DNA of 64,000 nucleotides from Thermoplasmata archaeon (lineage in GTDB: Archaea; Thermoplasmatota; Thermoplasmata; Lutacidiplasmatales; UBA184). Where the stretch lies: positions 409,729 to 473,728 of the forward strand of contig JAKIWL010000002.1 in the NCBI GenBank assembly GCA_022750055.1, written 5' to 3'. The notes beneath the pieces are model-generated. The model was given only the letters and a program-made list of their open reading frames with translations, had not been told where the DNA came from and ran no database searches. This document shows positions 7,040 to 63,300 of this stretch, one piece after another. Position numbers and translations under genes: made by a program. How positions within the stretch are numbered: position 1 is the stretch's first letter; the number at the start of each line of letters is the position of its first letter.

Positions 7040-7684
7040 ATGCCTCTTGCCCGACCGGAGGGCAGCCGGATACCGCCCGGGCAGGTCTTGAACCGAGGGT
7101 TTCCGATCCTCCATGCCGGAACGATACCCACCGACCTGACCCGTGACACCTGGCGGCTGCGGGTCCATGGCGCCGTCGCCCATCCCTTCGAGCTCGCCTT
7201 CGCCGAGCTCCTCGAGTTCCCTCAGAAGGAGGAGGTCGTCGACATCCACTGCGTTACAAGCTGGACCAAATTGGACACCCGCTGGCGAGGAGTCCCGTTT
7301 CGATCGATCGCCGAGCGTGCGGCGCCTGATCCGGACGCCCGATTCGTGGTGATGGAATGCGAGCAGGGTTTCACGACCTCCCTGCCGATGCCAGCGCTCT
7401 TCGAGGACTCTGTCTTGCTAGCCCATGGCTATGGTGGAGCGCCGCTCGCTCCCGAGCACGGCGGCCCGGTTCGGATGCTCGTTCCGCAGCGCTACTTCTA
7501 CAAGAGCGCGAAATGGCTCAGGGGGATCAAGTTCGTGGTCCAAGACGAACCCGGATTCTGGGAGGTTCGTGGGTATTCCAACCTGGCCGACCCGTGGAAG
7601 CAAACTCGCTATGAGGTAGATGATGTTCGGGAGATCCACGCGATGCGCAAACGTTCCCTGTTCGAGCCCATCGTGCGAGGATAG
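7040..7684 (+). CDS. Sulfite oxidase-like molybdopterin-binding oxidoreductase (YuiH/MsrP-like)
   Basis: IPPGQ, DIHCVTSW (Mo Cys), PEHGGPVR, YFYKSAKWL, PGFWE motifs. Confidence 0.88.
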   Translation: MPLARPEGSRIPPGQVLNRGFPILHAGTIPTDLTRDTWRLRVHGAVAHPFELAFAELLEFPQKEEVVDIHCVTSWTKLDTRWRGVPFRSIAERAAPDPDARFVVMECEQGFTTSLPMPALFEDSVLLAHGYGGAPLAPEHGGPVRMLVPQRYFYKSAKWLRGIKFVVQDEPGFWEVRGYSNLADPWKQTRYEVDDVREIHAMRKRSLFEPIVRG

Positions 7685-7785
7685 AGCATGGTGGTCCCCA
7701 GCAGGCAAGACGTAAAGTATTCGACCCGACGCCCGCCGTTGTGACGTAGGGATAGAATAAGGAATCTTATATTAGTGCGCATCTG

Positions 7786-7801
7786 CCCGTATAAATACGG
7801 G
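7786..7801. promoter_or_regulatory. Inverted repeat centred on a TATA box, probable promoter/operator of the peptide gene
   Basis: CCCGTAT-AA-ATACGGG containing TATAAATA in an AT-rich intergenic island. Confidence 0.55.
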
Positions 7802-7887
7802 TCGATTTACACCCCCAAGTTATACGACGTCGAGTGGATATTACTTAATACCCAATTCCCGACGGACGGGATGGAGGTGACTCGCAC

Positions 7888-7932
7888 ATGTACCTGCCGA
7901 TCGTTCCGCCCCTTCCTCGCGACCAACTCTAA
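7888..7932 (+). CDS. Putative 14-aa peptide MYLPIVPPLPRDQL
   Basis: GGAGGTGA (7873-7880) 7 nt before ATG; TAA at 7930-7932; upstream TATA; downstream hairpin. Confidence 0.6.
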   Translation: MYLPIVPPLPRDQL

Positions 7933-7948
7933 ACCATTAAGGTTGGAC

Positions 7949-7968
7949 GGGGGGGTTCCTACCCCCCC
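7949..7968. terminator. G7-TTCCTA-C7 hairpin at the convergence of the peptide gene and the STAND regulator
   Basis: GGGGGGG TTCCTA CCCCCCC; overlaps the regulator TAG stop; no U-tract. Confidence 0.35.
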
Positions 7969-10427
7969 TCCGCCTGCTCGGCCGGTGAAGGGAGCTGCGA
8001 GGCTCCTGAGGCCGAGCCACCCGAGCCTCTCGACCGGAGGTTCTCGATCTTCGACTTGAACTCCGATTCCATCTGGTCCACCCACCACTGCATTCCCATC
8101 GATGCGGCGAGCTGTACCGCCGCATGGTACTCCTGCCGGGCGAGGGAGGCCTCTCCCAACGCGGTGTAGACCTCCGTCAGGTAGGATCGCGCGAACACGA
8201 GCGAGTCCGACACCGGCAGTCGGCTGAGCACGAGCACGCTCCGCTCGGCGTGTTCTCGCGCCTGCCCGAGCTTGCCCTGTCGCAGTTCTCCGGCCGCCAG
8301 GGCCGCGAGAGTGTGCCCTAGGACCGTCTCGTTGCCGAGGCGTTCGGCAAGTCCGATCGCCTCCCGGGCGAACTCTCCGGCCTCCTCCCACTTGCCGGCC
8401 TCCATCGTCATCGCCACGAGTCCGCTCAGGGTGTAGATCAGCTCGTTGAGGTGTCCCTTCGCCTCGGTCTCGGCGCGGATCTGGCGCATCTCCAGGTCGG
8501 CCAGTTCGGGTTTCCCGGTCTCCTGGTAGGCCCGGGCGCGAACGAGCAGGAGGTTGAAGACGAGCTCCATCTGGCCCGACGCGCGCGCTTCGGGAAGGCC
8601 CTGTTCGACCATCCGGAGGGCGACCTCGTGCGCCCCGCCGATCGAGGCCTGTCGGGACCAACGAGCCAGGGCCTCGAGCGCCACCTCGGATTGACGGTCC
8701 TTTCGAGCCTGCTCAAAACACGTCTGGAACAGCTCCCGTGCCTTGGCGAGGTCCCCGCGAGCCTCCACGAGCCGGGCCTCGTAGAATTGGAACATCGACC
8801 GGAGCCGCTTCGTCGTCGGAGCGGACCGCCGGGCCTCGTCGAGGGTCGCTCGGGCGCTCTCTACCTGCTTGAGCCGGATCTGAAGGTCGGCGATCTTGAG
8901 CTGGCATTCGGCCCGGGTACGGCGGTCTTCGCCGGCATCCGTGCTAGCACGCCGTAGGAGCAGGATCGCCTCGGAGTATTCGGAATGGGTCCGCAGGAGC
9001 TCGGCCTGGACGCGCAGCGCCCTGAGGCGCCCCGGCCCGAGGGGCATGGCGAGGGTCATGTGGTTGAGGGCGTTTCGCAGGGCATCCGAGTAGCCGAGCG
9101 AGAGGATCTTGGTCTCCTCGCGAGAGAGGACCTCGGAGGCCGACCGCCAATCCTCCCCGGCCACGAGATGGAGGAACCGCTCCCGGACCATGTCGGATCG
9201 GTGGCTGCGCAGGTAGTACGAGGCGAGGGTGCGATGGGCCTCCAGGTCGAGCGGCCCGGCCCGGCTAACGATGGCCCGACGGATCGCCTCGAGAATCTCG
9301 ACACGGCCCTCCCCGGTCGGGTGCAGGATACCGATCCGGACCAGCTCGTCGAGCCGTTCGGGGCTCATCCGTCCGAATTCGGTCAGAAACGTCAGCGGAA
9401 GGGGGGCGTTGGCCAACGCGACCGGCAGTAGGTCGGCCAGCTCCGAGCTCGGCATCTTCGCGACCACCGCGTCGGGAAGGGTGGACGGCTTCGCCTCGAC
9501 GCCAGGATTCAGGACGGCGAGTTGGAGCATCAACGGGCTGCCGAGCGACGCCTGGTAGACGCTTTCGAAGCGGTCCGCGAGGCCGCCCTGTCGATCGGTC
9601 AGTTCGTGGGCGGAGGCGCGGTCGAGTCCCCCGATCTCCAAGCGCCGTATCTCCGATTCCCCGGCGATCATGAACGGGGGCTCCTGTCCCACCATGAAGA
9701 ACAGCGACTTTCCTTCGATCAGGAGTGCGGGAAAGAACTCCGAAAGGAAGCTTCTGAGGTCGGGACCGCCGAACTGGACGTCGTCGAGGACCCCGAGCAG
9801 ATGGTGGTCACGGAGGGCGCGGAGGACGAGGCTCGCGACCACCCGTCCGGTAGGCGGTCGGGGGACCTCGGCATAGTAGGCGAGCTGAGAGGCTCCCAAG
9901 GGGGCCAGCGCGTGGGCGATCGCCTCCAAGAAGTGTCGGGGAGACGACCCGGGCCGAACCGTGAACCAGAACGGAACCCTACCCCGTTTGAGACGCCACA
10001 CATGCTGAGCCACGAGGGCGGTCTTTCCCATGCCTGGGGCGCCCTGGACCCAGATCAGCGATTCCGGGTCGTCTGAAAACTCGGCGAGCCGGCGGAGCTC
10101 GTCGCGGCGTCCCATGAAGGGCCGGGGAGGAACGGGGAGTTCAGCCGGTAGCATCGGGACGTATCGGGCCTGTTTGTGGAGCACCTCCCGTCCGTCCGGG
10201 GTCAGTCGGTAGACGAGCTGTTTTCGGACCCCGCCGCGAACCAGCCCCCGGTGGGCCTCCAGTTGACGCTCGGACACGAGCGTCTGCAACGGCCTCGACA
10301 TCGAGCAGGGGTGGTAGCCGAGGGATTGGGCGAGTTCCCCCTGGGAGATCCCGAACGGCCCTTCGTCGGAAGTGTGGGTCCCGACGTAGTCGAGGATCTC
10401 GGTGTGGACGTAGGTCTTGACTGGCAC
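7959..10427 (-). CDS. wHTH-ATPase-TPR (STAND/MalT-like) transcriptional regulator
   Basis: N-terminal wHTH (GISQGELAQSLG...VYRLTPDG), FMGRRDEL pre-ATPase motif, Walker A GAPGMGKT, Walker B LLGVLDDVQ, GSPLML, C-terminal TPR-like helices; GTG 10427 chosen as start. Confidence 0.85.
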   Translation of the reverse strand: MPVKTYVHTEILDYVGTHTSDEGPFGISQGELAQSLGYHPCSMSRPLQTLVSERQLEAHRGLVRGGVRKQLVYRLTPDGREVLHKQARYVPMLPAELPVPPRPFMGRRDELRRLAEFSDDPESLIWVQGAPGMGKTALVAQHVWRLKRGRVPFWFTVRPGSSPRHFLEAIAHALAPLGASQLAYYAEVPRPPTGRVVASLVLRALRDHHLLGVLDDVQFGGPDLRSFLSEFFPALLIEGKSLFFMVGQEPPFMIAGESEIRRLEIGGLDRASAHELTDRQGGLADRFESVYQASLGSPLMLQLAVLNPGVEAKPSTLPDAVVAKMPSSELADLLPVALANAPLPLTFLTEFGRMSPERLDELVRIGILHPTGEGRVEILEAIRRAIVSRAGPLDLEAHRTLASYYLRSHRSDMVRERFLHLVAGEDWRSASEVLSREETKILSLGYSDALRNALNHMTLAMPLGPGRLRALRVQAELLRTHSEYSEAILLLRRASTDAGEDRRTRAECQLKIADLQIRLKQVESARATLDEARRSAPTTKRLRSMFQFYEARLVEARGDLAKARELFQTCFEQARKDRQSEVALEALARWSRQASIGGAHEVALRMVEQGLPEARASGQMELVFNLLLVRARAYQETGKPELADLEMRQIRAETEAKGHLNELIYTLSGLVAMTMEAGKWEEAGEFAREAIGLAERLGNETVLGHTLAALAAGELRQGKLGQAREHAERSVLVLSRLPVSDSLVFARSYLTEVYTALGEASLARQEYHAAVQLAASMGMQWWVDQMESEFKSKIENLRSRGSGGSASGASQLPSPAEQAEGG

Positions 10428-10460
10428 TGACTCGGGGTAGACCGTCCGGCTACTTATCCT

Positions 10461-10476
10461 TATTTTGTACAAAATA
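10461..10476. promoter_or_regulatory. Perfect 16-bp palindrome between divergent promoters (candidate operator)
   Basis: TATTTTGTACAAAATA, between an AT box for the regulator (~10451-10459, minus) and TTTATGTA (10487-10494, plus). Confidence 0.7.
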
Positions 10477-10520
10477 GCAGGCAGGGTTTATGTACGATGC
10501 CGGGAACTGAGTCCTTTGCA

Positions 10521-10790
10521 ATGACGCAACCGAGCGAATCGGGCAAGCCCGTCGGCGGCATCGGAACGATGCTGATGCAGTCCGACGTCTGCCCGGCGTG
10601 CGGGAAGGTCCACAACAGTCGATTGGTACGCTACCTGCCGTCGGTGGGTCAACTGATGGGCACCCCCACCGCCTATCCGACAAGCCCCGTCTCCACGGAA
10701 TCCGCTCGATCGCCCCGGGTTCGCGGCCGGAAGCCCTCGAACATGCCGTTGTTCTGGCCGATGCCCCAGTCCTCTGAGGGGTACCCATGA
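10521..10790 (+). CDS. Small hypothetical protein with CPACGKVH zinc-knuckle-like motif
   Basis: ATG ~27 nt after TATA; shares CPxCxKxHxxRLVRxL with next ORF; ATGA overlap with it. Confidence 0.65.
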   Translation: MTQPSESGKPVGGIGTMLMQSDVCPACGKVHNSRLVRYLPSVGQLMGTPTAYPTSPVSTESARSPRVRGRKPSNMPLFWPMPQSSEGYP

Positions 10791-11098
10791 GTCCGCCGGA
10801 GTCCCTGGCGAACGGCTGGAAGCTGCTCCCGAAGTTCGACATCGAGGGAGAGTCGACCCACACAGGCCGCAGCGGTCACACCGACTCCCTGTCGCTCCCG
10901 TGCCCGGTCTGCCGCAAGTCCCACGGCGCTCGGCTCGTCCGCAGCCTGGTCGTCTCCCCGATCACGCCGCCCCGCGAAACGATCCCGAAGGAGCCTCGGA
11001 TCGATTCCCGATACTACCCACCGGCCGTGCCCGTCCTCTCCCGGCAATCCAAGGGCCCGATCAACCTGTCGGCCCGTTGGTCGCTCTCGGTCGTCTAG
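10787..11098 (+). CDS. Small hypothetical protein with CPVCRKSH motif, paralogue of upstream ORF
   Basis: SD-like GAGGGG, ATGA coupling, CPVCRKSHGARLVRSL. Confidence 0.65.
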   Translation: MSPPESLANGWKLLPKFDIEGESTHTGRSGHTDSLSLPCPVCRKSHGARLVRSLVVSPITPPRETIPKEPRIDSRYYPPAVPVLSRQSKGPINLSARWSLSVV

Positions 11099-11109
11099 GA
11101 GGGGTTTGC

Positions 11110-11391
11110 ATGGTGGTGGATCGAGAGGTCGGCCGCGGAAGTCGGATCTCACCGCGCTGGCTCGATTCGCCCCGCGGCGAGGCGTTCCTCGTCTCGGTCG
11201 GCAAGCTGACCAAGGAGGAGGAGGCGGCGACGTGGCCCATGTGGCTCTCCCCGACCTCCTCGAGCGGTCCCGCGGTGAACCAAGGGATCTCGGGTGGGCG
11301 GCGACCGGCTCTCGGCAAGCGCAGCGCCCCGGCTCGAACTGACGATGACCCAAGGCTCCCGCCGGGGATCCCGGCCCCGACGGGAGCCTAG
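11110..11391 (+). CDS. Small hypothetical protein (93 aa)
   Basis: SD AGGAGGGG overlapping previous stop; ATG 11110; MVVDREVGRG...WPMWLSP. Confidence 0.5.
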   Translation: MVVDREVGRGSRISPRWLDSPRGEAFLVSVGKLTKEEEAATWPMWLSPTSSSGPAVNQGISGGRRPALGKRSAPARTDDDPRLPPGIPAPTGA

Positions 11392-11493
11392 AAACCCAGG
11401 GCGACGATGACGCCCGGATATCTCATCGAAGCCGATCCCAGGGCCGCAAACGAAAGATACTTCCAGGGGGGTTCCTCCGCCCTGGTATCGCTG

Positions 11494-11718
11494 ATGTCCG
11501 AGACCCGATGCGCGAACTGTGGAGGGTCGCTCGAACCCGGGTTCGTCTCCACCACGAACGGGTCGGGCCTTTTTTGGTCCCACGAGGCGAATTCGACCCG
11601 CCTTCGACCCAAGGGTCTCGAAGTCCTCGTCCCGACCGGATTCCAGGGGACCTACTCGGCGAACATCCCCGGGCTGCGCTGCGGGGCCTGCGCAACGATC
11701 CTGTTGCGCCTGAAATAG
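11494..11718 (+). CDS. Small zinc-ribbon protein (DUF6487-like)
   Basis: CANCGGSLEPGFV...LFW...RCGACATI pattern with two CxxC pairs. Confidence 0.7.
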   Translation: MSETRCANCGGSLEPGFVSTTNGSGLFWSHEANSTRLRPKGLEVLVPTGFQGTYSANIPGLRCGACATILLRLK

Positions 11719-11730
11719 GCCTCGGGCCCG

Positions 11731-13137
11731 TTAGGCGCCGGCCACGCTCAACGACCCTACCGAAAGGGCGGGGGCCGACAATTGACCCACCAGGGTCGGG
11801 CGGCCCCCTACTGCGCTCACCGACCGGAGTAGCGACGGCTCTCCGGGGGCCGCCAAGGCAACCCCTCCGACCGTTCCGCCTCGGACCGGGGTCGAGAGCT
11901 TTCCGTCCTTGACGAGGTACCCGAGGCGGATCTCCCCACCGAACGCGCCCGAGACCGGGTCGGGAAACGAGTAGCCAAGCTGGTCGACCCACAGGCCCTC
12001 TCCAAGGGCCTCGATCATCTCCTGGTCCGATCCCCCGTCGCCCGGGCCCAACACCATGGTCGAGGGACCGGGATTGGGCCGGATCATGAAATGGAACCAG
12101 GGGGACAGGGTCGCGGTGTCCCGGCGCCCACCCCCGGTGGACTGATCGCTGAGCGCACGGCCGTGGAGAACGTCGTAGATCGGTTCCCGGAACTCCCCGG
12201 ATTGGATCAGGGGCCGTTTGGCGTGAAGAACCCCTTCATCGTCCCACGGTGCGGAGGCGAGGCCGTACGGATAGAGCCCGTCATCCCAAAGGTCGATGTT
12301 GGCCCCCCCCACGGCCGACCCCTTCGGCGGCATCATTCCGCGAAGGGCGGCCTGACCGCCCAAGCGGAACCCGAGGGTCGCCGGCAAGATCTCGCTCAGG
12401 ACCTCAGGAGGGAGAAGCACCTGGCGTACCCCGGGCGGGGTGGGCGACGCGCTCCCTGCATCCCGGGCTTTCCGAGACCATTCGAGGCCCTGGGAAGCGA
12501 TGGCACGGTGGTCCAGGCAGCAGCTCCGCTGGTTGACCCAGTACTCCCCCGACCCGGGCCCTTCCGGTCCTGCGGTGGATCGGACGGCGAACTCGAGCTC
12601 GGCCGAGGTTCTCTGAAAGCTCGCCTTGGCCCCCGAGGAGTTCGCGAAGGTGACGTCGATGAGCGCGACTCGAAGCGACCCAAAGCTCGGACGGACGTCC
12701 TTGCGACCATCGAACGGAGCCAGGACCTCCGAGACGAACCGCTCGATGGACGCCTCCGGGCGCGCCCAGAGCTCCGGATCGGCACTGAGGACGGTGCCCG
12801 AGCTGGGTAAACTCCCAGGGAGCGAAACGTCCTTCGCCGGGAAGGAGGAGAATCGCGAGGCGATCGTGGCTTCCTCTATCGTCCGGGCGACCCCGGCCGT
12901 GGAAACGTCGGTCGACCCGGCGAACCCGACTCGTACGCCCCCGTTGTGGGGCGCGATCACCCGATACCCGTATCCCTCGAGCTGGATGGGCCCCCGCGTC
13001 ATCTCGACCTGGTCGCCGTTGATGTGGATCTCGAAACGACGGATCGCCTCCCCGTACACGTCCCAGGGCCCCGGGGCCCGGCGCACGCGGTCGGCCACTC
13101 GAAACGCGGTCTCGGCCGAGGAGAACGGGGCGGTCAC
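11731..13137 (-). CDS. pmbA: PmbA/TldE family metalloprotease modulator
   Basis: PWDDEG, DPVSGAFGG and YLVKDGKL motifs, no HExxxH; GTGA overlap with tldD. Confidence 0.82.
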   Translation of the reverse strand: MTAPFSSAETAFRVADRVRRAPGPWDVYGEAIRRFEIHINGDQVEMTRGPIQLEGYGYRVIAPHNGGVRVGFAGSTDVSTAGVARTIEEATIASRFSSFPAKDVSLPGSLPSSGTVLSADPELWARPEASIERFVSEVLAPFDGRKDVRPSFGSLRVALIDVTFANSSGAKASFQRTSAELEFAVRSTAGPEGPGSGEYWVNQRSCCLDHRAIASQGLEWSRKARDAGSASPTPPGVRQVLLPPEVLSEILPATLGFRLGGQAALRGMMPPKGSAVGGANIDLWDDGLYPYGLASAPWDDEGVLHAKRPLIQSGEFREPIYDVLHGRALSDQSTGGGRRDTATLSPWFHFMIRPNPGPSTMVLGPGDGGSDQEMIEALGEGLWVDQLGYSFPDPVSGAFGGEIRLGYLVKDGKLSTPVRGGTVGGVALAAPGEPSLLRSVSAVGGRPTLVGQLSAPALSVGSLSVAGA

Positions 13138-14528
13138 GCGGGCCCCACGATCGCTTCGGAGAGCAGGTACGGACCCCCGGTCCCGGTCGGAAGGAGGTCG
13201 GTGTGTCCCTTGCCGCAATATCCCGGGCTCATCTCGAAGTCCTCCTTCCGACTGACCCCTCGGATGGCGGTCAAGAATTCTAGCACACGGCCGGAGAGCG
13301 CCATGGAGGGACGGATCGGCCCGATCTCGCCGCCCCGGACGAGATGGCCCTTCTTCACCTTGATCTGCATGTTTCCTCCGAGCGGGTCCTCGATGCCGCT
13401 CGTGCAGGATTCGAGGATCACGCCATCGCGCATCTCCCGGACCATCTCCTCAAGGTGCATCGCCCCGGGTTCCACGAATGTATTCGTCATCCGGACGAAC
13501 GGGCGGCTCAGGAAGTCGGCCCGTCGGGTGTTCCCCGTGGCTCTTCGATGGAGCGCGGCGGCTGTCTCCCGGTCGTGGAGCGCCTCGATGAACTTTCCGT
13601 GATCGACTAGGACGGTCCTCCCGGAGGGATGGCCCTCATCATCGAAGAAGATCGAACCCCATCCCCCCGGGAGCGAACCATCGTCGACCAGCGTCAGGCT
13701 CTCGGGCCCGAGGACCTTTCCAAAGAGGGGCTTGAGGTACGAACGGTCCCGCAGCATCTGGTCGGCCTCAGCGCCGTGTCCGAACGATTCATGGGCGAAC
13801 GTGCCCGACGCGCTCGGGTCGAGCAGCACCTTCATCCGGCCGACGGGAGGCGAGGGAGCCTGAAGGAGCTCGACCGCCGCATGGGCGGCCCGGCTCACCC
13901 GTTCCGGAGTGATCTCTGCCAGGATCTCCGCCCCACCCATCCCCCCACGGCCCGTGAAGTCGTACTCCACCTTTCCATTCTCGATCGCCAGGGCGGCGAC
14001 GGCCCCCCGGGTCCGGTCGATGGTCTGGAGCGTCCGGGCCCCAGCCGTGGAGAGGAACAGTCGGATGTCGGTCCGCGATTGGATCGTCGCATACGCATTC
14101 CGAATGCCTTTCACTTCGGTCGCCCAGGCGAACCAGGTCTGAGCGAGTGCGACCCGTTCGGAGACCGGAACCTCACCCATGGGTTGTTGGGTCTTCGTCG
14201 AGGCCTCGCCGCGCTGAGTGGAGGACTCCCCCGGTGGGTCGGGGGCGCCGCCGGCGAACCCGAGATGTTGGATGAGGGAGTCGGCGGCCGTCGTGAGCGA
14301 ATCGGCCTCGAGTCCGCTCGCGCCCGCCTCGGTCCATCCCTTGGGTCCCCATGCCCGGAACATGGCCCCTCGAAACCCTGGAGAGGGCTCGACCACGGTC
14401 GCGGAGCGGTCGTACCGGACGAGGTGGCTGGTGGTCTCCTCGGCCATCACCTCCGCATAGGGCGCATGTCGTTCGATCCGGTGGAGGAGCCGGGCGAGGA
14501 GGTCGTCGACCTCAACGACTCCGGGCAT
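13134..14528 (-). CDS. tldD: TldD family metalloprotease
   Basis: HESFGHGAEAD zinc motif, FDDEG, VRMTNTF, CGKG; SD GGAGGGG. Confidence 0.92.
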   Translation of the reverse strand: MPGVVEVDDLLARLLHRIERHAPYAEVMAEETTSHLVRYDRSATVVEPSPGFRGAMFRAWGPKGWTEAGASGLEADSLTTAADSLIQHLGFAGGAPDPPGESSTQRGEASTKTQQPMGEVPVSERVALAQTWFAWATEVKGIRNAYATIQSRTDIRLFLSTAGARTLQTIDRTRGAVAALAIENGKVEYDFTGRGGMGGAEILAEITPERVSRAAHAAVELLQAPSPPVGRMKVLLDPSASGTFAHESFGHGAEADQMLRDRSYLKPLFGKVLGPESLTLVDDGSLPGGWGSIFFDDEGHPSGRTVLVDHGKFIEALHDRETAAALHRRATGNTRRADFLSRPFVRMTNTFVEPGAMHLEEMVREMRDGVILESCTSGIEDPLGGNMQIKVKKGHLVRGGEIGPIRPSMALSGRVLEFLTAIRGVSRKEDFEMSPGYCGKGHTDLLPTGTGGPYLLSEAIVGPA

Positions 14529-63225: not shown

Positions 63226-63300
63226 GGGCCCATAGCTTAGGCTGGCTGGAGCACCCGGCTGATAACCGGGAGGTCGTCGGTTCAAATCCGACTGGGCCCA
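63226..63300 (+). tRNA. tRNA-Ile(GAT)
   Basis: Acceptor GGGCCCA/TGGGCCC, anticodon arm CCCGG-CTGATAA-CCGGG, T arm GTCGG-TTCAAAT-CCGAC; no encoded CCA. Confidence 0.96.

Follow-up and report, generated by a model that had tools for sequence, protein, structure and literature searches.

The locus described here lies in a 64,000-nucleotide stretch (the window; positions 409,729 to 473,728 of contig JAKIWL010000002.1, assembly GCA_022750055.1) from the 1.52-Mb, 94% complete genome of an uncultured Thermoplasmata archaeon. Set in conserved housekeeping synteny, it consists, in order, of a molybdopterin oxidoreductase gene, a 14-codon micro-open reading frame (micro-ORF) on the plus strand, a gene for a large regulator on the minus strand, a divergent spacer, four small ORFs on the plus strand (s1 to s4), and a PmbA/TldD gene pair on the minus strand. 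A first-pass annotation of the window had read this arrangement as a candidate peptide-sensing switch of a kind that it did not recognize as described in archaea. Genome comparison indicates that the pairing of micro-ORF and regulator is real and goes beyond chance, and we lean, with moderate confidence, toward the view that the micro-ORF is translated and that its proline-rich 14-residue product serves as an intracellular ligand dedicated to the regulator's tetratricopeptide repeat (TPR) sensor.

The regulator gene (7959-10427, minus strand) begins with GTG and encodes 822 residues. The ORF list and Pfam bear out the winged helix-turn-helix (wHTH), ATPase, and TPR regions that the first-pass annotation had assigned to it, in the order wHTH, nucleotide-binding oligomerization domain (NOD; signal transduction ATPase with numerous domains [STAND] NTPase), arm, and TPR sensor. 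A longer form with a TTG start, from 10472, is also among the listed ORFs; we place the start at 10427 because the N terminus is conserved from there and because the conserved palindrome upstream is noncoding. Residues 11-57 match HTH_IclR (29.5 bits; Pfam cutoff, 22), and residues 666-730 match TPR_12 (35.8 bits; cutoff, 30.1), while the matches to AAA_16 at residues 103-228 (28.9 bits; cutoff, 32.6) and to TPR_MalT at residues 646-775 (29.2 bits; cutoff, 45) fall under their cutoffs; weak NACHT and NB-ARC matches lie beside AAA_16. The Walker A motif (G-x4-G-K-T; G129 and G132-K135) and the Walker B motif (hhhhDD; D215 and D216) are unchanged in 28 regulator orthologs. Many of these orthologs carry precomputed MarR_2 or HTH_IclR annotations, and their public names are "hypothetical protein," "AAA family ATPase," or "TPR repeat protein / MarR family regulator."

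An AlphaFold2 model of the regulator (mean predicted local distance difference test [pLDDT] score, 81.8) contains about 17 paired helices over residues 393-799. The closest solved fold found by Foldseek is 6mfv_A (E value of 2.1e-16; template modeling score of 0.70 on the target; 661 columns at 15% identity), and this match spans both the NOD and the TPR region; a sequence search of the Protein Data Bank (PDB) with the regulator returned only designed or generic TPR chains, at E values of 0.01 or more. The regulator belongs to the TPR-sensor STAND class. Its effector is a wHTH, with no toxic effector domain in Pfam, and this large, ATP-driven protein, with its predicted DNA-binding winged helix, probably controls genes. 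Two other identities were considered and set aside. The regulator falls outside RRNPP, given the roughly 300-residue NOD between the HTH and the TPR region, and it does not correspond to a known defense STAND, the best PADLOC match being mad8, with an E value of 4.3e-4 over 30 residues, which is at the level of the P-loop.

Convergent to the regulator gene, the micro-ORF (7888-7932, plus strand) runs from an ATG at 7888 to a stop codon at 7930-7932 and is preceded by the Shine-Dalgarno (SD) sequence GGAGGTGA at 7873-7880 (plus strand). About 22 to 26 nt before the SD lies a TATA-like box, CTTAATA (7844-7850, plus strand; TTAAATA in most relatives), which forms a conserved column block in the locus alignment and which, going by the archaeal TATA consensus, we take to be the micro-ORF promoter. 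Between the two convergent genes is a G+C-rich hairpin (7945-7971) that holds the regulator stop codon in its loop (−27.4 kcal/mol; z = −3.75; 1 of 200 shuffled sequences folds as well); most relatives have a hairpin of other sequence at the same position in the alignment, and the structure is probably a two-way terminator or 3′-end stabilizer. The SD, the TATA-like region, the hairpin, and the 14-residue peptide itself are all in the DNA as the first-pass annotation gave them. Within a single genome such an ORF is not significant, because SD-led short ORFs like it recur there: among 423 GGAGGTG sites, 95 have a start codon 4 to 11 nt downstream, and 8 lead ATG ORFs of 30 codons or fewer. The case for the micro-ORF as a gene rests on conservation across genomes.

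That annotation had proposed looking past the stop codons of orthologous regulators for a conserved, SD-led small ORF, and such an ORF is there in every case. A convergent, SD-led ORF of 13 to 16 codons is present in 34 of the 34 loci with DNA past the regulator stop codon, a count that was anchored on the regulator and not on the peptide, with duplicates counted once and one locus from an unpublished genome (L007) left out. Genera g1, g15, g19, and g20 are all represented, the most divergent regulators being 43% identical; each locus has GGAGGTG, or a version with one base changed, ahead of the ORF, and the SD lies 65 to 172 nt from the regulator stop codon. Coding-signature statistics were computed on the 32 loci with canonical length. 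Entropy at codon positions 1, 2, and 3 is 0.76, 0.65, and 1.41, the variation falling at synonymous sites, and the ratio of nonsynonymous to synonymous polymorphism (pN/pS) is 0.52 in frame versus 1.07 and 1.69 in the other two frames. Residues P4 and P7 are proline in 32 of 32 loci and are encoded by all four proline codons. This frame-specific variation, together with prolines drawn from every available codon, argues for selection on the amino acid sequence of the micro-ORF. The consensus in relatives is M-Y-L-P-x-(V/L)-P-P-x-P-x-(E/D)-Q-L, with a C-terminal half that has diverged in some lineages, and a product of 13 to 16 residues in all 34 loci leaves no room for a signal sequence or pro-region. 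Two g20 loci (L086 and L088) have micro-ORFs that seem to start with GTG and lack the aromatic second residue (V/M-I-P-x-L-P-P-L-Q...), forming a subfamily with a shorter N terminus.

The regulator and the micro-ORF are strictly linked; all counts are drawn from related genomes. Within the genus, the regulator was found in 14 of 24 genomes in a first draw and, at an E value of 1e-40 or less, in 100 of 149. Sister genera carry it at 43 to 52% identity (1 of 5 genomes in g15, 5 of 8 in g19, and 7 of 9 in g20), and 6 genomes from the order's two remaining families lacked it. Scanning 121 genomes of the genus with a degenerate DNA pattern built for the peptide gave a single copy in each of 46, which is a lower bound because the pattern misses diverged peptides; the reversed control pattern gave none. 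In 28 of 30 pattern loci examined, the 3′ end of the regulator gene lies directly beside the ORF, and the contigs of the other 2 end 64 and 185 nt beyond it. Forty-five of the 46 pattern-positive genomes are also regulator positive, the exception being one of the contig-end cases, and the pattern was absent from all 16 regulator-negative genomes that were both named in the regulator search and scanned for it.

A second clade of regulators has a micro-ORF of its own. Genera g17 and g18 of the same family encode regulators that are 26 to 28% identical to that of the window and have the same AAA_16-plus-TPR architecture. With one of these as the query, matches were found in 6 of 60 family genomes (4 of 4 in g17 and 2 of 3 in g18), at 35 to 41% identity to the query (70% for one same-genus fragment). 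In 6 of 6 of these loci with downstream DNA, an SD-led ORF of 10 to 11 codons runs convergently toward the regulator gene, and it belongs to a different family, starting with M-D-P and ending with (W/F)-P. Each regulator clade thus has its own peptide family, which is the pattern expected of ligand-receptor pairs. No SD-led short ORF was found within 330 nt, on either strand, at any of seven more distant STAND homologs from other families or classes. The clade-2 loci comprise L089 and L103 to L108. At L089 (contig G147:C63, 1616-3958), the micro-ORF lies about 90 nt past the regulator stop codon and a divergent NUDIX gene takes the place of s1 to s4; neither the palindrome nor s1 or s4 is found at that locus.

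The first-pass annotation had also suggested cofolding peptide and regulator. Regulator residues 346-822 (25-row alignment) were modeled with the peptide (22-row alignment), and the interface score ipSAE was 0.77, 0.79, and 0.77 in three runs, compared with 0.02 and 0.01 for two unrelated 14-residue peptides and 0.00 for the peptide with an unrelated protein; the pair therefore passes its controls (0.77 versus 0.02), with a peptide chain that is under the calibrated length. Partner pLDDT did not drop below 75, and 88% or more of the contacts recurred between runs. Of 80 solved complexes, 58 reach the mark set for this tool, as do 2 of 110 mismatched pairs. In the model, peptide residues 1-13 occupy the TPR groove (regulator residues 517-789), with peptide residues 5-8, for example, contacting regulator residues 665-713 and 745-752; the interface is enriched in columns that are at least 90% conserved (18 of 47 versus 91 of 430; Fisher p = 0.009), which is only a hint because relatives are not independent. 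The complex model supports peptide binding in the TPR groove and does not demonstrate it.

Two conserved cis elements accompany the pair. The 93-nt divergent spacer between the regulator gene and s1 holds, at 10461-10476, the 16-bp palindrome TATTTTGTACAAAATA, which is perfect, as first annotated. It forms the core of the divergent promoter (10450-10476) together with the adjoining conserved ATAAGTAG (10450-10457, read on the minus strand), and it is flanked on the regulator side by CTAAGTAG-like bases. All loci having that DNA, 11 of 11 in one set (a variant in one of them) and 14 of 14 in another, contain the palindrome; they span four genera, and it is near-invariant although the regulators have drifted to 43% identity; the genome has a single such site at one mismatch or fewer. 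It overlaps the position of the would-be transcription factor B recognition element (BRE) and TATA box of the regulator gene and lies about 12 nt upstream of the s1 TATA-like box (10487-10494, plus strand), which is conserved as TTTAAGTA, TTTATATG, or ATTAAATA in relatives; these roles in the divergent promoter are presumed from the promoter consensus. Because the putative s1 box lies about 30 nt before the s1 ATG, the s1 mRNA would have almost no leader, or none.

The second element lies in the A+T-richer, 270-nt spacer next to the molybdopterin oxidoreductase gene, which also contains the 14-codon ORF. Upstream of the micro-ORF, a conserved noncoding block of 57 nt (7756-7812, plus strand), aligned over 35 loci and again over 34, is a candidate operator array. 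It comprises a small inverted repeat (7757-7770), a TGCGCA-type box (box 1, 7775-7782), and two further boxes (2 and 3) that make up an imperfect palindrome with 7-bp arms and a 2-nt spacer (7786-7801). This last site, which the first-pass annotation had singled out, is present, and it does not stand alone but forms part of the larger array; the centers of the three boxes are about 10 bp apart in relatives. An nhmmer profile of the block found only this site in the genome (E value of 3.4e-10; next best, 0.44). With the palindrome and the box block both confined to this locus, a regulon elsewhere in the genome was discarded. The palindrome and the upstream boxes have only a TG-N2-CA core in common. 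Boxes resembling ATGCGCAT precede the clade-2 micro-ORF at 4 of its 6 loci and occur near the 5′ end of the regulator gene in some clade-1 loci. A GTATAWCC motif in the block is kept in relatives and has diverged in the window. The block was rejected as a structured RNA (z = −1.1, and no Rfam match): Rfam gave no match in 7700-7960, its sole match in the window being a tRNA-Ile at 63226-63300. The arms of the inverted repeat at 7757-7770 change together between species (TAAG/CTTA, CAG/CTG, and CTAG/CTAG), and several versions have G-T oppositions, which would be G-U pairs in a plus-strand RNA; the repeat may be a protein site or a tiny RNA stem.

On the other side of the divergent spacer, s1 (10521-10790, plus strand) has a conserved start and encodes an orphan protein with an N-terminal C-x2-C-G-x-V-H motif. 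It is overlapped through ATGA by s2 (10787-11098, plus strand), a paralog that shares a C-P-x-C...H-x-x-R-L-V-R motif with it; s2 occurs only in the window and in its 86%-identical closest relative and is for that reason read as a recent tandem duplicate of s1. The weakly conserved s3 (11110-11391, plus strand) carries a W-P-x-W-L-x-P motif, and s4 (11407-11718, plus strand) encodes a DUF6487 zinc ribbon (26.7 bits; cutoff, 24) with a conserved core from about 11494. No named family in Pfam, NCBIfam, or PADLOC matches s1 to s3; a homolog search with s1 found 7 close relatives only, none of them named, and its Atlas matches were subthreshold at 0.80. By tblastn, s1 and s4 stand beside the regulator in all orthologous loci tested.

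Regulator-less genomes show where this set of genes begins and ends. In two of the same genus (G002 and G005), the deoxyhypusine synthase, oxidoreductase, s4, PmbA, and TldD genes follow one another in order, with no micro-ORF, regulator, s1, or s3 among them. The DUF6487 gene, kept between the oxidoreductase and PmbA genes in both (at 1865-2230 in locus L101 of G002, and in L100 of G005), has its own 140-nt upstream region there. Because these genomes retain it in that place, the cassette is a clean presence/absence difference, and genome comparison indicates that the gained or lost unit is micro-ORF, regulator, s1 (with s2), and s3, with s4 and the flanking genes forming the backbone. The microprotein operon of the first-pass annotation therefore holds in part: s1 to s3 and the zinc ribbon gene are present, but s2 is a recent s1 duplicate and s4 falls outside the gained or lost unit. 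A third regulator-less genome (G044) has an unrelated 526-residue ORF at the cassette position. Elsewhere (G172, G193, G126, G165, G192, and G075), the regulator has in-frame stops or lies in pieces, which may reflect cassette decay or assembly errors.

In the mechanism that we propose, the cassette would be a four-gene accessory unit of a Thermoplasmata family, made up of the micro-ORF, the STAND regulator, s1, and s3. The peptide would be made in the cell and would bind, as inducer or inhibitor, in the groove of the TPR sensor of the regulator encoded tail to tail with it. Binding would shift the NOD between a closed ADP form and an open ATP form, by analogy with MalT and PH0952-type STANDs, and the shift would alter multimerization and the way in which the N-terminal winged helix binds DNA. 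The palindrome and the TGCGCA-type box array are the likely targets: the former could serve autoregulation and control of s1 to s3, and the latter could close a feedback loop of the regulator on the gene for its own ligand. An intracellular role is favored, as it had been from the outset, because there is no signal sequence, no room for processing, and no transporter in the cassette.

The cassette would thus be a TPR-sensor STAND in architecture and RRNPP-like in logic. MalT of Escherichia coli likewise combines a STAND NTPase with a DNA-binding effector and a TPR-like sensor, in keeping with the weak TPR_MalT match. In MalT, the inducer maltotriose binds the sensor and arm and brings about ATP-dependent multimerization on arrays of repeated boxes; the DNA-binding domain is C terminal and of the LuxR type, and MalK, MalY, and Aes exert negative control. 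The regulator differs in its N-terminal effector and in that its proposed ligand is a gene-encoded peptide. RRNPP systems (Rap/Phr, NprR, PlcR/PapR, PrgX, and AimR/AimP), known from Firmicutes and their phages, share with the cassette the pairing of a TPR-sensor transcription regulator with an adjacent small peptide gene: the peptide binds in the TPR groove, and peptide and receptor diversify together. They have no NTPase module, and their peptides come from longer precursors with export signals that are processed and reimported by Opp, whereas the cassette has a NOD between HTH and TPR, a signal-less product of 13 to 16 residues, and an archaeal host. In the available text of one RRNPP paper, the word "archaea" is confined to the reference list. 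Antiviral Avs proteins also join a STAND core to a TPR-like sensor that recognizes a protein ligand, and one (8dgc) is among the fold matches; the effector here is a winged helix and not a nuclease or killing domain, and PADLOC assigned no defense family. The nearest structural relative, PH0952 of Pyrococcus horikoshii (PDB 6mfv), is an archaeal STAND with a TPR sensor, placed in a clade between the MalT and APAF1 clades and described as a predicted transcription factor; the paper, as far as its main text is available, names no inducer, and the word "peptide" is absent from that text (PMC6468293). The regulator and PH0952 have the same domain order (N-terminal winged helix, NOD, arm, and TPR sensor) but are 15% identical in the fold alignment, and the regulator has no sequence-level match to any solved chain; whereas no inducer is named for PH0952 in that text, a candidate inducer is encoded beside the regulator.

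Several points weigh against a ligand role for the peptide. The complex tool was calibrated on chains of 30 residues or more, and because many TPR-peptide complexes have been solved, a pass can partly reflect likeness; the interface conservation test takes no account of relatedness among the sequences. The palindrome and the boxes are unlike in sequence (TTTGTACAAA versus TGCGCA), and one winged helix may not bind both. The pattern tally (121 genomes) and the regulator tally (149 genomes) include the unpublished genomes G019 and G109. Strict linkage, finally, is equally expected if the peptide is an output of the regulator or if the ORF is a cis-acting element. In the former case, the STAND would sense something else and induce the micro-ORF through the box array, and the peptide would have a different target (s1, s3, s4, or a housekeeping protein, for instance). 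The box array upstream of the micro-ORF is conserved and locus specific, similar boxes lie upstream of the clade-2 micro-ORF, and linkage alone gives no direction; yet the model puts the peptide in the sensor groove, where unrelated 14-mers fail, and each of the two regulator clades comes with a peptide family of its own, as receptors and ligands do. We consider a pure output role unlikely, and input and output could both apply if the loop is autoinducing. A cis-acting micro-ORF seems less likely still. Here, ribosome pausing on the prolines would set read-through via the hairpin into the antisense of the regulator 3′ end and so tune the regulator, possibly in response to aIF5A or proline supply, a scheme that suits the single hairpin shared by the convergent genes, with the regulator stop codon in it, the conserved P-P-x-P motif, and the deoxyhypusine synthase gene nearby. 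It is at odds with conservation that spans the whole peptide, including the acidic-Q-L end, and not the prolines alone, with a clade-2 micro-ORF of different sequence, with the wide variation in spacing between ORF and regulator stop codon, and with the presence of deoxyhypusine synthase in cassette-less genomes.

A secreted cell-to-cell signal of the RRNPP type, exported, reimported, and bound by the regulator as in an archaeal form of quorum sensing, would account for the layout of a TPR-sensor regulator beside a small peptide gene and for the diversification of the peptide between clades. We regard it as very unlikely: the whole product is 13 to 16 residues long without a signal sequence or pro-region, the cassette has no transporter or peptidase gene, and the adjacent PmbA/TldD genes are also found in cassette-less genomes. 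The broader proposal that the co-diversifying micropeptide-receptor pairs constitute a diffusible intercellular signal, the first archaeal ribosomal peptide pheromone system and one read by a STAND NTPase, strikes us as a long shot; if it were true, the M-Y-L-P...E-Q-L and M-D-P...W-P clades would be private channels. We give almost no credence to an untranslated ORF whose conserved stretch would serve as a small RNA or as the 3′ portion of a regulatory element. Short SD-led ORFs do arise by chance, as the 8 in this genome illustrate, but the variation is frame specific, start, stop, length, and SD are kept across four genera, and Rfam has no match at the micro-ORF.

Should the peptide be the ligand of the TPR sensor, as we favor, it may be the first gene-encoded peptide ligand known for the STAND class, a suggestion that draws on the complex model. 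Full-text literature searches, as far as their listings and the beginnings of abstracts extend, revealed neither a peptide-STAND pairing in archaea nor any STAND whose micropeptide ligand is encoded alongside it, in agreement with the earlier view that such a system is undescribed in archaea. MalT, the apoptosome, NLR immune receptors, and Avs all work through a STAND NTPase switch, and in each of these the ligand of the sensor is the hard question. The locus offers a candidate that can be synthesized, a 14-residue peptide encoded beside its putative receptor and conserved across four genera, and the clade-2 receptor with its different peptide provides a built-in specificity control, so that a defined ligand could be used to test how a TPR-sensor STAND is activated. 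The locus also points to gene regulation by encoded micropeptides in archaea, of which those same searches yielded no description. Genes of 14 codons, missed by gene callers, can be recovered by anchoring on a neighboring gene.

Pieces of the cassette region also appear in a soil metatranscriptome (library X2), available as contigs only. Contigs that match with 98% identity cover s1-s2 (10533-11043), s3 (11072-11285), and s4 (11475-11646), and the longest (10533-11043) has adapter sequence at both ends. No contig covers the micro-ORF or the regulator, and contigs cannot show absence; because, in addition, DNA may be present in the library and the shares are small (0.09 to 0.18), these contigs are uninformative about micro-ORF expression or habitat.

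The genes flanking the locus were assigned by Pfam: the molybdopterin oxidoreductase gene (7040-7684) on the left and the PmbA/TldD pair (11731-14528, minus strand) on the right, with a deoxyhypusine synthase gene nearby, placed by Pfam and synteny. A functional tie of the cassette to any of these neighbors was rejected as synteny only, because they are present in the same order in cassette-less genomes. The PmbA/TldD peptidase pair adjoins the locus in all genomes examined, with or without the cassette. As listed, the PmbA-like (11731-13218) and TldD-like (13134-14528) ORFs overlap by 85 nt on the minus strand, and the PmbA start codon therefore probably lies further in.

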